11,459 nucleotides of DNA from a virus. Shown piece after piece: positions 2,537-5,933 of this stretch. The first letter of the stretch is position 1. Each line of letters opens with the position of its first letter. The position numbers and the translations under genes are program-made. Location of the stretch: the UHGV virus genome UHGV-0179154. One strand, written 5' to 3'. The notes under the pieces are model-generated. The model had not been told where the DNA came from. It made no database searches and worked only from the letters and a program-made list of their open reading frames with translations.

Positions 2537-2815
2537 TCAGGCCTCGAAGAATTCGCCGTTCTTCGGGGCTTTTTCTTTTGTCAGCATTCTGGCTACTTTC
2601 TTAGCCAGTTCCGCCAACTCCTCGTCTTCAACACCCCATTCAAGAACAGCCAGAAGCATTCCCATTTTTGGGATGAAGCTGTCTTTCCATCGCGAAATTT
2701 GCGATTCATTAATCCCTAACGCGTCAGCAACCTTTCGCTGACCACGTACAGCAATTCGATTCAGGATGTTGCTTGTAATTGCATTCGCTTTCTTGCGAGT
2801 ACTTGTAAGTTGCAT
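2537..2815 (-). CDS. cII: CII-like transcriptional activator
   Basis: QISRWK and MLLAVLEWGV motifs resemble lambda CII; start at ATG 2815 is preceded by AAGGAAATACTTACAT, which matches the lambda cII start context as I recall it. The track ORF extends further 5' to 2902, but that start is not supported. Confidence 0.75.
   Translation of the reverse strand: MQLTSTRKKANAITSNILNRIAVRGQRKVADALGINESQISRWKDSFIPKMGMLLAVLEWGVEDEELAELAKKVARMLTKEKAPKNGEFFEA
2542..2580 (+). terminator. Strong plus-strand intrinsic terminator inside the cII 3' end (lambda oop RNA-like antisense terminator)
   Basis: 10-bp stem 2542..2551 / 2559..2568 with 7-nt loop, then CTTTTTCTTTTG; the minus strand has no U-tract after the hairpin, so it is unidirectional. 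Confidence 0.55.
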
Positions 2816-2923: not shown

Positions 2924-3118
2924 CTATTTGTTTTTCTTGTTGCTTGGGAAAGGACGAACTTCCTCTCCAATCACACTGCCATCAGGCTTTACCGTAACCA
3001 TGATGTTACGGCCTGCCAGAATGGCCTTGCTGATAGCGCACTGGATTACACCAAAGTCACTGGCTGCTTTAGCCTGTCCATGGATTTTGGCGTAATCGGC
3101 AAGTGTCATTCGAATCAT
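2924..3118 (-). CDS. cro: Cro-like repressor
   Basis: Strong resemblance to lambda Cro (TLxDYA, GQxKxA, KAIxAGR, DGSV, EEVxPFPSNKK); ATG at 3118 preceded by GGAGAG. The track start at 3124 is a GTG. Confidence 0.8.
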
Positions 3119-3147
3119 ATGCACTCTCCGTTATTAACCATGAACAA

Positions 3148-3176
3148 AGAATACTACAGGTATTCAAAGCAATCAA
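3148..3176 (-). promoter_or_regulatory. PR-like promoter driving cro
   Basis: On the minus strand: -35 TTGATT (plus 3171..3176), 17-nt spacer, -10 TATTCT (plus 3148..3153); overlaps OR1 and OR2. Confidence 0.45.
3150..3164. promoter_or_regulatory. OR1-like operator (AATACTACAGGTATT)
   Basis: 15-bp palindromic site AATAC-N5-GTATT; same motif recurs at OR2 and at OL. Confidence 0.55.
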
Positions 3177-3189
3177 TACTCAGGGTATT
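3175..3189. promoter_or_regulatory. OR2-like operator (AATACTCAGGGTATT)
   Basis: Second copy of AATAC-N5-GTATT, 10 bp from OR1. Confidence 0.55.
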
Positions 3190-3190
3190 T

Positions 3191-3218
3191 TTAGTTTAAG
3201 TACCTTAGCTATTAGAAT
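3191..3218 (+). promoter_or_regulatory. PRM-like promoter for cI (probably leaderless)
   Basis: -10 TAGAAT at 3213..3218 with a weak -35 near 3191..3196; no Shine-Dalgarno before the cI ATG at 3225. Confidence 0.35.
3199..3213. promoter_or_regulatory. Possible degenerate OR3 (AGTACCTTAGCTATT)
   Basis: Partial match to the operator consensus at the expected spacing; overlaps the PRM -10. Confidence 0.3.
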
Positions 3219-3224
3219 TAAGCT

Positions 3225-3941
3225 ATGGAAAATAAAAAATCACTGACGACAGAACAGCTCGAAGACGCTAAGCGGCTTAAGGCTTTGTATGAGTCAAAAA
3301 AGAAAGAATTGGGAATAACCCAATACTCAATCGCTGATGAACTGGGTATCACCCAAGGAGCGGTAGGGCATTATCTTAATGGCAGAAACGCGCTAAACGT
3401 TGAGGTCGCATCTGGTTTTGCACGTTTGTTGCAAGTCTCAATTGCTGATTTTAGCCAGTCAATTGCTGCCAAGGTTGCAGAACAGGCAGAAAGCCTTAAG
3501 AGCGATGCCAACGTAAGGTATGCAGGGGAATACAGAGCAGGAAAGAGGTATCCGGTGTTAAGCAGTATCCAGGCTGGCTCGTGGTGTGAAGCATGCGAAC
3601 CATACACCATTAAAGACATAGATGTTTGGCTTGAGTCTGACGCGCATATTCAAGGCAATGCGTTCTGGCTTAAAGTGGAAGGTGATTCAATGACGGCACC
3701 GGTTGGGTTAAGCATTCCAGAGGGAACATTCGTTCTTTTCGATACCGGAAGGGAGGCGATCAACGGCAGCCTGGTCATAGCAAAACTTTCTGACTCTAAC
3801 GAAGCAACATTCAAGAAGCTGATAATCGACGGCGGAAATAAATACCTCAAGGGACTTAACCCTGCATGGCCTCTCGTGCCAATCAATGGAAACTGCAAGA
3901 TTATAGGCGTTGCAATTGAGACAAAACTAAGGCTGGTTTGA
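3225..3941 (+). CDS. cI: CI-like repressor (HTH N-domain plus LexA/S24-like autocleaving C-domain)
   Basis: 238 aa; N-terminus LTxEQLEDAKRLKALYE resembles lambda CI; candidate Ala-Gly cleavage site in SSIQAGSW; GDSM serine and FKKL lysine motifs present. Confidence 0.85.
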   Translation: MENKKSLTTEQLEDAKRLKALYESKKKELGITQYSIADELGITQGAVGHYLNGRNALNVEVASGFARLLQVSIADFSQSIAAKVAEQAESLKSDANVRYAGEYRAGKRYPVLSSIQAGSWCEACEPYTIKDIDVWLESDAHIQGNAFWLKVEGDSMTAPVGLSIPEGTFVLFDTGREAINGSLVIAKLSDSNEATFKKLIIDGGNKYLKGLNPAWPLVPINGNCKIIGVAIETKLRLV

Positions 3942-3960
3942 TCACGCAAGGGGGACGCTT

Positions 3961-4329
3961 ATGGTTGGAACCGCTATAGCAAGCTTTTTTGGGATGTTGG
4001 CAATCTCAACAATTTACGGCTTAGCGCATGCTTTTATTGCGAAATCTCTATCAGAAAAAATAAGCCAGGCTTGGGCGCATAGATCAGCTCGTTTCATGAT
4101 TCTAGTGGTCATAGCAATACAAGGGATATCTGCATTTATCCTCTATGGATCAAGCTTATACCTGTTGTATCAAGGCGCGACATTTACGCCTTACACCAGT
4201 GATTACGGAACTCTATACGATGGTAGTGAAGACATCTCTATGGCTTGGATCGTCTTTGGTTTATCTATGGCCGTGTCTGTTGTAGCAGACATCATTAAGG
4301 TAATTCTCGTCTTAACCTTCGCTGACTAA
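3961..4329 (+). CDS. Small membrane protein with three predicted TM helices, co-transcribed with cI (rexAB position)
   Basis: GGGGGA 5 nt upstream of ATG at 3961, 19 nt after the cI stop; three hydrophobic stretches (aa 3-27, 45-70, 94-120); no recognisable family. Confidence 0.6.
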   Translation: MVGTAIASFFGMLAISTIYGLAHAFIAKSLSEKISQAWAHRSARFMILVVIAIQGISAFILYGSSLYLLYQGATFTPYTSDYGTLYDGSEDISMAWIVFGLSMAVSVVADIIKVILVLTFAD

Positions 4330-4433
4330 CCCATAATCCCGGCAGCAATAGCTATCGGGATCCACTTCACATATCCCGCATAAAAAGCACTGAACAAGCA
4401 GATACCGAAAAAATAAATATCCTTTGTATTCAT
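4326..4433 (-). CDS. Possible small hydrophobic peptide (35 aa), convergent with the membrane gene
   Basis: Hand-translated MNTKDIYFFGICLFSAFYAGYVKWIPIAIAAGIMG; no clear Shine-Dalgarno; may be a chance ORF. Confidence 0.15.
   Translation of the reverse strand: MNTKDIYFFGICLFSAFYAGYVKWIPIAIAAGIMG
4416..4430. promoter_or_regulatory. Possible OL3 (AATATCCTTTGTATT)
   Basis: One mismatch to AATAC-N5-GTATT; spaced 28 bp from OL2. Confidence 0.3.
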
Positions 4434-4458
4434 TTGTTTATCATTATTTCATCAAAAT

Positions 4459-4473
4459 AAATACCTTGGGTAT
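4459..4473. promoter_or_regulatory. OL2-like operator (AATACCTTGGGTATT)
   Basis: Perfect AATAC-N5-GTATT palindrome. Confidence 0.55.
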
Positions 4474-4500
4474 TTACACAATAAAATACCTACAGTATTC
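4472..4500 (+). promoter_or_regulatory. PL-like promoter
   Basis: -35 TTTACA (4472..4477), 17-nt spacer, -10 TATTCT (4495..4500); same TAG/CAG-TATTCT arrangement as the PR candidate. Confidence 0.45.
4484..4498. promoter_or_regulatory. OL1-like operator (AATACCTACAGTATT)
   Basis: Perfect AATAC-N5-GTATT palindrome overlapping the PL -10. Confidence 0.55.
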
Positions 4501-4547
4501 TTTAGCCATCAGCAGGACGCTGGAAGCCAAACGGAACAGATTGGCAG

Positions 4548-4587
4548 GCTCTTTAACATTGATGGGATTGTCCCGCCGAAATGCGGG
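4548..4587 (+). promoter_or_regulatory. nutL-like site (boxA GCTCTTTAACA plus boxB CCCGCCGAAATGCGGG)
   Basis: boxA 4548..4558 and boxB hairpin 4572..4587, about 40 nt downstream of the predicted PL start; boxB identical to nutR. Confidence 0.6.
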
Positions 4588-4899
4588 AACCAAAGAGTAG
4601 TTGGCTTAGGGGTGACGTGAAGTGCAGCTGCACGACGGCAACCGGAAGATAAGCACCCGGCGCGTCACCGCCAAAGTCAATTCCATAGGCGAAATGCAGC
4701 CGCCAAACACAGCCAATGCTGCACATGCAACAGGAGGATTTATGTGAATGCATAACTTCAAAACCGAGGTTAATTAAATCTCTCGATCCGAGCATCGACC
4801 TATTAGGTGGCGAGATGCTCTTTCTGCCCCTCAGTTCGAGGGGCCAGAAACCACTTTGCAATCACTATCAATTCCAAAGTTGTTTCATCGGAGGTCAAC

Positions 4900-5172
4900 A
4901 TGACAGTAGTCATTACATATCTGGCTGACGATAACGCCAGAAATCGCCGCAGAGCACGCAGACAGGCTAAACGTGAACAGGCAATGCAAGAGCAGCGACT
5001 GGCGCGAAAAATTGCGCTAAAGCTCTCTGGTTGCGTCAGAGCAGACAAAGCAGCATCACTCGGAAGCCTTCGCTGCAAAAAGGCAGAAGAATGCAGTGGA
5101 AGTATTTGCCTGCCAAACGTAGCCATTTACGCGGCAGGCTACCGGAAATCAAAACAACTGACGGCGAGGTAA
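4900..5172 (+). CDS. N: N-like transcription antiterminator (arginine-rich motif)
   Basis: GGAGG 5 nt upstream of ATG at 4900; N-terminal NARNRRRARRQAKREQA resembles the lambda N arginine-rich motif; first gene after PL/nutL. Confidence 0.65.
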   Translation: MTVVITYLADDNARNRRRARRQAKREQAMQEQRLARKIALKLSGCVRADKAASLGSLRCKKAEECSGSICLPNVAIYAAGYRKSKQLTAR

Positions 5173-5175
5173 GTG

Positions 5176-5400
5176 ATGAATCAGACATACATTCCATCAT
5201 GCTTGAGAAATCTGCCAAAGCAGAAAGCAAAGCCCCGCAAGCAAGCCATAAAGGACGCTAAGGCAGAGGTTATTGATCAAGCAATACAATTGCTCAGGGA
5301 GGAGTTAAGAAGTGGCAAGCTCGAAGGAATGATGATGCCCTATCAGCGCGGATATCTATCGGCGATTAGTAAGTTGGAAGTATTGAAGAGTGAATTATGA
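5176..5400 (+). CDS. Hypothetical protein (74 aa), translationally coupled to N
   Basis: GAGG 6 nt upstream of ATG at 5176, 3 nt after the N stop; no recognisable family. Confidence 0.5.
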   Translation: MNQTYIPSCLRNLPKQKAKPRKQAIKDAKAEVIDQAIQLLREELRSGKLEGMMMPYQRGYLSAISKLEVLKSEL

Positions 5401-5462: not shown

Positions 5463-5933
5463 ATGACAATATCATGGAGCGTACCTTTTCCTGAATCAGA
5501 AACTGAACATGATGGAATGCCTGTTTTCTGGAGATTCCAGGCGACAGTTGAAGAAGATGGAATCAAAATATTCGCACTTCAATATATAGCTTTTCATCAG
5601 ACAGAGCATTATGCATGGTTGGTTCCTGCGCATTGGATTGTTAATTTTAAACCAGCACCAAATCAGTGGTTACAGGAATGGAAACAAAAGAGAAATAGAT
5701 ATGCAATTAAGAAAGTAGCAAAAAATGCAGAAAGATCTTTTGCATTCCCAACGAAGAAACTTGCCATTGAGAGTTTATTGCGCCGGAAGAAATACCATTT
5801 AATTAGAATCAAACAAGATTTGGCTGTTGTATCAACTCTTGTTGATGGGATGAAGAATATTGATACATCAACACCAGATATTGAATATAACTTTGGACAC
5901 AACCAAGAAACAGAAAATTGGGTATTCTACTAG
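5463..5933 (+). CDS. Hypothetical protein (156 aa) in AT-rich island
   Basis: GAGGTG upstream of ATG at 5463; followed directly by an intrinsic terminator; no recognisable motifs. Confidence 0.55.
   Translation: MTISWSVPFPESETEHDGMPVFWRFQATVEEDGIKIFALQYIAFHQTEHYAWLVPAHWIVNFKPAPNQWLQEWKQKRNRYAIKKVAKNAERSFAFPTKKLAIESLLRRKKYHLIRIKQDLAVVSTLVDGMKNIDTSTPDIEYNFGHNQETENWVFY

Follow-up and report, generated by a model that had tools for sequence, protein, structure and literature searches.

The slot between the repressor gene cI and the antiterminator gene N of lambdoid prophages is a hotspot of exclusion and abortive-infection genes which are expressed in the lysogen, for example rexAB in lambda and bstA in the Salmonella prophage BTP1 (PMC8585504, with Degnan 2007 cited therein). 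RexB is described as an ion channel; bstA lies directly behind the repressor gene, presumably shares its promoter and keeps this architecture across hosts (PMC8585504). The hex gene of phage 434 is co-transcribed with the 434 repressor from the promoter PRM, and its product blocks RecA-mediated cleavage (PMC3564112). SieA of phage P22 is an inner-membrane protein with three transmembrane (TM) segments which alone blocks DNA injection (PMC10883804). We analysed a stretch of 11,459 nucleotides (nt) from the virus genome UHGV-0179154, hereafter the window, in which the cI–N slot is occupied by the gene hkaS, an open reading frame (ORF) which starts with ATG at position 3961 and encodes a protein of 122 amino acids (aa). 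What is new here is that hkaS is tied to a single immunity module and is not exchangeable cargo.

Among 5,426 complete Escherichia coli genomes we found hkaS in 146 and a cI gene of the type carried by coliphage HK620 in 146. A joint query of cI and hkaS was covered to at least 80% in the same 146 genomes, where the pair was chromosomal in all and contiguous in 146/146. cI was also located directly ahead of hkaS in 79/79 of those IMG/VR loci which include upstream sequence, from a sample of 80 loci. The block which these 80 loci have in common with the window at ≥ 90% identity extends from ~2450 (cII) to ~4650 (just past pL/nutL), and similarity collapses on either side of it; these limits are those classically seen for lambdoid immunity regions.

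The pair was also present in four lineages which have diverged from that of E. coli (100% for both proteins): a Hafnia-type lineage (cI 96%, HkaS 82% identity), the lineage of locus L007 (cI 89%, HkaS 52%), a Salmonella lineage (cI 86%, HkaS 60%) and an Enterobacter-type lineage (cI 84% over its C-terminal part, HkaS 56%). In these four lineages the cI–hkaS junction measures 17–20 nt and has a purine-rich, Shine-Dalgarno-like AAGGA or AGGGA, and the N, O and P flanks around the pair differ in a mosaic fashion. The three lineages with full flanks (Hafnia-type, L007 and Salmonella) contain the same operator palindrome as the window, AATAC-N5-GTATT, and the OL region was conserved across lineages by alignment. 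With more distant repressors the slot is filled differently: it is empty in Serratia phage OS31 (repressor 71% identical) and contains two unrelated ORFs in Enterobacter phage BHUENT3 (65%), hex in phage 434 (52%) and rexAB in lambda (43%). The value for BHUENT3 (L011 2170-2886) is an overall tblastn identity; by eye the C-terminal part of its repressor looks very similar and the N-terminal DNA-binding region is replaced. The two ORFs in its slot, further uncharacterised occupants of the hotspot, are one of 127 aa which is soluble and rich in Cys and one of 109 aa in which a Gly-rich segment at the N-terminus is combined with a hydrophobic stretch at the C-terminus.

A first-pass annotation of this locus had placed the gene at the lambda rexA/rexB position and had described this position as one which holds unrelated exclusion or abortive-infection genes in other lambdoid phages. 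The synteny is correct, with hkaS between cI and OL/pL–N, and the slot is indeed such a hotspot across lambdoids (PMC8585504, PMC3564112), but within the HK620-type repressor lineage its content does not vary and hkaS is constant.

At the DNA level hkaS was 98.1% identical to hkaS of HK620 (AAK28867, product ‘unknown’), which has the same position between cI and tIMM/OL; the two HkaS proteins were 96.7% identical and the two cI 99.6% identical. An identical copy (100%) was found in phage vB_EcoP-611R6, and copies with 98–99% identity in HK140, HK630, mEpX2, HZ41, HF4s, phi296/phi367 and two Stx2c-converting phages. HkaS matched the profile of PHROG 6534 (‘unknown function’) over its whole length (E = 5.9e−79, residues 1–122 of 122). 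It is labelled ‘hypothetical protein’ in RefSeq (WP_000233128.1), and every named member of its clusters is likewise ‘hypothetical’. Its family membership is thus HkaS/PHROG 6534 only, which names the gene and says nothing on function.

When 5.8 billion proteins were searched with a word index, the matches fell into 12 clusters from Escherichia, Salmonella, Hafnia and Enterobacter, all consisting of the same 122-aa protein or frameshifted fragments of it. In an exhaustive profile search against 1.84 billion representatives, the cluster of HkaS itself and a single 44-aa fragment were the only matches. We found 16 near-identical copies and nothing else by tblastn in 50,697 phage records, and no hkaS in the 185,579 genomes of the GTDB species representatives. 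Pfam gave sub-threshold hydrophobic matches only, to Cation_ATPase_C (19 bits vs a cut-off of 27) and TssN; there was no match for HkaS in NCBIfam, no defence family in PADLOC-DB 2.0 at E ≤ 1 and no match in a PDB sequence profile search at E ≤ 10. The protein had been described beforehand as uncharacterised and lacking a recognised motif. This agrees with the HK620 product label and with our literature search, in which no paper mentioning hkaS was found, and the fold and family searches (Pfam, NCBIfam, PADLOC, PDB) gave no characterised relative. HkaS is therefore an orphan family, with a three-helix fold which is confidently predicted by modelling but non-specific.

hkaS is a genuine gene: five lineages with saturated synonymous sites retain it as an ORF of 122 codons, 82/82 copies of the E. 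coli lineage are intact, PHROG 6534 matches it over its full length, and no other conserved ORF lies between cI and OL. cI ends with TGA at 3939-3941, and a GGGGGA lies 5 nt ahead of the hkaS ATG. In a consensus scan of 3000-5000 no + strand promoter-like or terminator-like site was predicted from cI to the end of hkaS, the sole + strand promoter-like site being that of pL (Table 1). The earlier description of a 19-nt gap after the cI stop, a ribosome-binding GGGGGA belonging to hkaS and no intervening promoter or terminator was therefore accurate.

From the sequence, together with the terminator tIMM of the HK620 annotators, we infer that the cI operon of an imm-HK620 immunity module has hkaS as its second cistron, read from PRM. 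The promoters pR and pL would fire away from hkaS, and only transcripts which cross cI could reach it; these would start at PRE during the establishment of lysogeny and at PRM in the lysogen. Because pL and pR are directed away from it, hkaS would be made in lysogens and not in lytic growth. The pattern TTGC-N6-TTGC had 2 matches in the window vs 0.9 expected, which is weak on its own. One of them lies within the 5′ part of cII, is directed at cro (antisense)–cI–hkaS and is located ~10–20 nt upstream of pRE as annotated in HK620.

A stem-loop begins 7 nt past the hkaS stop (−14.1 kcal/mol, z = −2.4), and hairpins of unrelated sequence were found at the same place in the Salmonella lineage (L003 5381-5421, z = −3.8) and in L007 (5383-5412, z = −2.3). 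All three are without a U-tract and none is called by a simple terminator scan. With its structure kept and its sequence changed, this hairpin probably either terminates the immunity transcript, comparably to tIMM, or stabilises its 3′ end. HK620 is annotated with tIMM (‘termination of cI transcript’) and OL3–OL1/pL right downstream of hkaS; the equivalent of tIMM in the window is 4411-4441, which is 3′ of the hairpin and overlaps an operator-like repeat, not the hairpin.

Two further features of this part of the window were noted. The first is a very hydrophobic antisense ORF of 35 aa, MNTKDIYFFGICLFSAFYAGYVKWIPIAIAAGIMG, between hkaS and OL (4326-4433, minus strand), the stop codon of which overlaps the hkaS stop and the ATG of which falls within the operator-like third site of OL (4416-4430). 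It had no PHROG, PADLOC or NCBIfam match and is probably spurious: it is disrupted in the Salmonella lineage, conservation does not extend beyond the lineage of E. coli, and 4330-4410 is unconserved. The second is a strict match to the operator core ATAC-N5-GTAT within hkaS itself (4157-4171, on the YLLY codons), with a relaxed half-match 41 nt upstream of it (4116-4130). The window has five strict matches, and the other four all lie in OR or OL. We rejected this pair as a conserved feature since it occurs in the E. coli lineage only and is absent from the Salmonella and L007 alleles; it is either a product of chance or a lineage-specific pseudo-operator.

We compared the selection acting on hkaS and on cI. 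Between lineages synonymous divergence (dS) was saturated and non-synonymous divergence (dN) was 0.08 for cI and 0.34–0.42 for hkaS, so that hkaS evolves ~4–5 times faster than cI; in the Salmonella lineage hkaS had dN = 0 and dS = 0.13. All 82 copies from the E. coli lineage had exactly 122 codons, and the variants among them were 38 synonymous and 7 non-synonymous for cI vs 21 and 22 for hkaS, the non-synonymous variants of hkaS being mainly conservative swaps within helices. The dN/dS pattern, along with the intactness of 82/82 copies, indicates that hkaS is under purifying selection, with a constraint which is much looser than that on cI.

HkaS is predicted to be a small polytopic inner-membrane protein with three helices and a periplasmic N-terminus. 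Kyte–Doolittle hydropathy peaked at residues ~3–27, 45–70 and 94–121, and an AlphaFold2 model built from seven family members (mean predicted local distance difference test score 92.3) contained predicted helices at 2–29, 31–38 (short and amphipathic), 41–73 and 89–121 and a small beta-hairpin at ~78–86, which supports the three hydrophobic helices that the first-pass annotation had reported. The loop at 28–44 carries K28, K33, R41 and R44 and the loop at 71–93 carries D81, D87, E90 and D91, a charge distribution which is the same in every homologue. By the positive-inside rule the N-terminus would be outside, the basic loop 28–44 inside, the acidic/aromatic loop 71–93 outside and the C-terminus inside. 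An AHA|F site in the E. coli alleles raised the possibility of a cleavable signal peptide, but it is not conserved in homologues and a first TM helix is preferred.

About 35 residues are invariant across lineages. Conservation is found in the basic amphipathic loop which is predicted to be cytoplasmic (KISQAWAHRxARF), at S65 and in YLLYQGATFxPY, which span the end of helix 2 and the start of the predicted periplasmic aromatic/acidic loop, and in helix 3, with D110 and K113 conserved and the C-terminal ILVLTFAD invariant. The invariant polar or charged residues within helices are Q54, S106, D110 and K113, and Y67–Y70 are invariant as well.

With regard to function, our preferred reading, by analogy, is that HkaS is a stand-alone inner-membrane superinfection-exclusion protein; this is tentative and we put its probability at roughly 35%. 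HkaS would act alone at the inner membrane and interfere with the genome entry of incoming phages, either by binding their ejection/tape-measure apparatus or by occupying a host inner-membrane component used for entry. HK97 gp15, T4 Imm and lactococcal Sie2009 are further examples of single-gene membrane exclusion. The slot contains a single ORF, with no cytoplasmic sensor partner and no enzymatic domain. Exclusion is preferred over RexB-like abortive infection because the slot is without a sensor gene, and a constitutive pore-former would need a form of control which was not seen.

Several points weigh against exclusion. Literature searches with hkaS, its accessions and PHROG 6534 yielded no functional, expression or RNA-seq data, and HkaS resembled no exclusion protein in sequence or in specific fold, whether in PHROGs or PADLOC, in comparisons with SieA and RexB or in fold searches. 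The tight linkage of cI and hkaS needs no functional explanation, because anything between cI and OL is trapped in a co-adapted immunity block. Furthermore, the module is carried by phages with different virions: HK620 and 611R6 are recorded as Lederbergvirus, others are Stx2c-converting, and HK630, mEpX2 and HK140 are presumably lambda- or HK97-like siphoviruses. As a result there is no obvious fixed ‘own-type’ injection target.

An alternative which we regard as unlikely is a stand-alone membrane effector of abortive infection, which would be idle in the lysogen and on infection would oligomerise to a lesion or channel which collapses the membrane potential. Such an effector would work like RexB or a holin and without a sensor of the RexA type, and indeed rexAB and bstA, both abortive-infection systems, occupy the same slot. 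The size of HkaS and its predicted topology of three TM helices, N-out/C-in, would fit a class I holin, and Q54, S106, D110 and K113 lie invariant inside helices. The absence of a sensor partner from the slot counts against this explanation, as do the lack of homology to RexB or lambda S and the lack of the charged C-terminal tail of lambda S.

We are equally doubtful, although the lineage-locked linkage and the conserved, predicted cytoplasmic face make this a serious rival, that HkaS is a lysogeny-switch modulator specific for HK620-type cI, that is, a functional analogue of 434 Hex which would stabilise or tune cI by limiting its RecA-stimulated autocleavage, through a membrane protease such as FtsH/HflKC, or through an envelope state coupled to induction. 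Co-inheritance and the roughly parallel divergence of cI and HkaS over the five lineages are consistent with this, although entrapment between cI and OL accounts for the linkage without any interaction. The strongest conservation falls on the predicted cytoplasmic side (KISQAWAHRxARF and ILVLTFAD), but the soluble parts are tiny, with ~17 residues in the cytoplasmic loop. Hex provides a precedent for a co-transcribed gene whose product blocks cleavage (PMC3564112), yet HkaS has no similarity to Hex, which looks secreted and not polytopic. While the presence of the module in Stx2c phages and in genomes of Shiga toxin-producing E. coli (STEC) would suit a modulator, the much faster evolution of hkaS than of cI does not, and neither does the OS31 repressor, which has no gene in the slot.

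A more particular form of this idea, in which HkaS is no generic exclusion protein and instead a membrane-anchored partner of this repressor switch, present only in lysogens and tuning cI stability or prophage induction, for instance by linking the switch to the state of the envelope or membrane or to a membrane protease, we consider decidedly unlikely. If true, it would explain why hkaS has remained with a single cI lineage despite the deep divergence of that lineage in Escherichia, Salmonella, Hafnia and Enterobacter, and would also cover its spread over Lederbergvirus, other lambdoid coliphages and Stx2c-converting phages; HkaS would then be a determinant of Stx2c prophage induction.

It is also unlikely that hkaS is a host-physiology moron, encoding a small membrane protein which would alter a host transporter, sensor or envelope to the benefit of the lysogen. 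Its presumed lysogen-only expression and its lack of a defence-family signature are compatible with such a role, and many small bacterial membrane proteins regulate larger membrane proteins. Host-fitness prophage morons are common in the same strains (PMC9928086). However, its distribution is very narrow, being restricted to one immunity type and found in 0/185,579 species-representative genomes, and nothing indicates a specific host target.

That hkaS is a dispensable passenger, retained merely through its position in a non-recombining immunity block, is hardly credible given that 82/82 copies are intact, that length, topology and the invariant residues are kept across lineages with saturated dS, and that the Salmonella lineage has dN = 0 vs dS = 0.13, despite the classic immunity-region borders of the surrounding conserved block and the relatively high non-synonymous:synonymous ratio within E. 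coli (22:21).

In a lambdoid prophage only the repressor operon is always on, and the cargo which it carries shapes the biology of the lysogen. About 2.7% of complete E. coli genomes, those of STEC strains among them, carry the hkaS module, and so do Stx2c-converting phages. If HkaS excludes phages, it would found a new family of single-gene membrane defence and offer a tractable system for studying how genome entry is blocked by small membrane proteins; if it tunes the repressor, it would matter for the stability of prophages and for the induction of Shiga-toxin phages.

The window comprises the early-region genes of a lambdoid/P22-like prophage in the order N – [slot] – cI – cro – cII – O – P (Table 1). 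No RNA family was matched in an Rfam scan of the window.

Table 1 Features of the window, with positions numbered from its first nucleotide.
Feature	Position	Strand	Basis and remarks
DnaB-type helicase	160-1536	minus	
O replication protein	1533-2354	minus	
cII	2537-2902	minus	mechanical ORF (121 aa); Phage_CII; closest phages annotate 92 aa (279 nt)
TTGC-N6-TTGC, possible cII-binding site / PRE −35 region	2769-2782	+	pattern search
cro	2924-3124	minus	
OR operators, AATAC-N5-GTATT palindromes	3150-3164, 3175-3190, 3198-3213		between cro and cI; include PRM/PR; repeat families, strict pattern matches, HK620 OR1-3 annotation
cI repressor, 238 aa, putative first cistron of the immunity operon	3225-3941	+	Pfam HTH_3 and Peptidase_S24; PHROG 4
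cI–hkaS junction, 19 nt	3942-3960	+	Shine-Dalgarno GGGGGA at 3950-3955
hkaS, 122 aa, predicted 3-TM inner-membrane protein	3961-4329	+	ORF, PHROG 6534, HK620 annotation, hydropathy, model
Stem-loop after the hkaS stop	4336-4361	+	RNA fold
OL operators	4416-4430, 4460-4474, 4484-4499		far boundary of the immunity module; repeats, pattern matches, HK620 annotation
pL, promoter-like	4473-4501	+	consensus scan and HK620 annotation
Antiterminator N	4807-5172	+	mechanical ORF; downstream of pL

The ORFs of N and cII as listed overshoot the probable starts. For N this start is most likely the ATG at 4900, preceded by GGAGG at 4890-4894; from there N has 90 aa, as in HK620, and an Arg-rich motif directly after the start. 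The stretch from nutL to N (~4650–4900) is a mosaic joint: among the IMG/VR loci at ≥ 90% identity, 4700-4800 was present in 23/80, compared with 76 to 80/80 for 4000-4600 and 76/80 for 4900-5000. A ‘proline-rich cell wall protein’ ORF annotated within this stretch in phage 611R6 is surely spurious. Downstream of N, the pL operon contains two + strand ORFs (5173-5400, 75 aa, and 5463-5933, 156 aa) which had no NCBIfam or PADLOC family; the equivalent region of HK620 contains hkaQ and the sieB-like hkaP (‘putative superinfection exclusion’) instead.

Amongst known systems, lambda RexB resembles HkaS in occupying the same slot between cI and OL/pL, under what would be the same operon logic, and both are small polytopic inner-membrane proteins, in the case of HkaS by prediction. 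RexB has four helices. It has 144 aa, whereas HkaS has 122 aa and three predicted helices; there is no homology between the two (hhalign probability 0.7%), and the RexB family was absent from the Pfam, PHROG and PADLOC matches. RexB has a RexA-type partner, which is absent beside hkaS, the slot containing only one ORF. The first-pass annotation had named a RexB-like effector without a partner as one possibility; HkaS is not RexB-like by homology and also differs from RexB in its number of helices.

Class I holins such as lambda S105 have a similar size (~105–120 aa; lambda S is 107 aa by translation). They have three TM helices in an N-out/C-in arrangement, and a charged C-terminal tail is typical of them. 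Such a tail can be read from the translation of lambda S, whereas HkaS ends in ILVLTFAD; there was no homology between the two (probability 0.2%), and holin genes are located in the lysis cassette and hkaS in the immunity operon.

434 Hex, which is made in lysogens, is likewise encoded directly behind the repressor, but had no homology to HkaS (hhalign 0.1%), and its signal-like segment at the N-terminus precedes a hydrophilic body, so that it looks secreted, in contrast to the three TM helices predicted for HkaS. It should be noted that 434 Hex (L009, lambda imm434, 2109-2513) starts with the signal-peptide-like MIRIAALLSILLTTSANSEC, which is odd for its reported cytoplasmic action on RecA and the repressor, and that a GenBank note on Hex describes the published start codon as wrong. 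BstA is a large soluble protein which acts on phage DNA replication and has a self-immunity element, aba. The position of hkaS right behind the prophage repressor is like that of bstA, but HkaS had no PADLOC or Pfam match.

Of the proteins compared, P22 SieA would be the best mechanistic analogue, being expressed from the prophage, acting alone and having about three predicted TM helices. The comparison covered the P22 type, one of three SieA sequence types; it gave no homology to HkaS (hhalign 0.3%), and no exclusion-annotated PHROG was matched. SieA is also longer (162–164 aa) and is encoded in the immI/tailspike region under its own promoter, unlike hkaS in the repressor operon.

In Perceval, an unrelated lambdoid prophage of E. 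coli LF82, a transmembrane protein two locus tags from cI was transcribed 81-fold above the prophage background and was top of its table (PMC9928086). We considered whether this protein could be HkaS and rejected this, as the repressor and the downstream genes differ. Behind the Perceval repressor (L013 13433-15798) there are two hypothetical genes, of 340 aa and 168 aa. Perceval is independent evidence that genes in this slot are strongly expressed in lysogens. hkaS is of a known kind, an accessory gene of the cI–N slot which would be expressed in the lysogen; what sets it apart is that it stays with a single repressor lineage.

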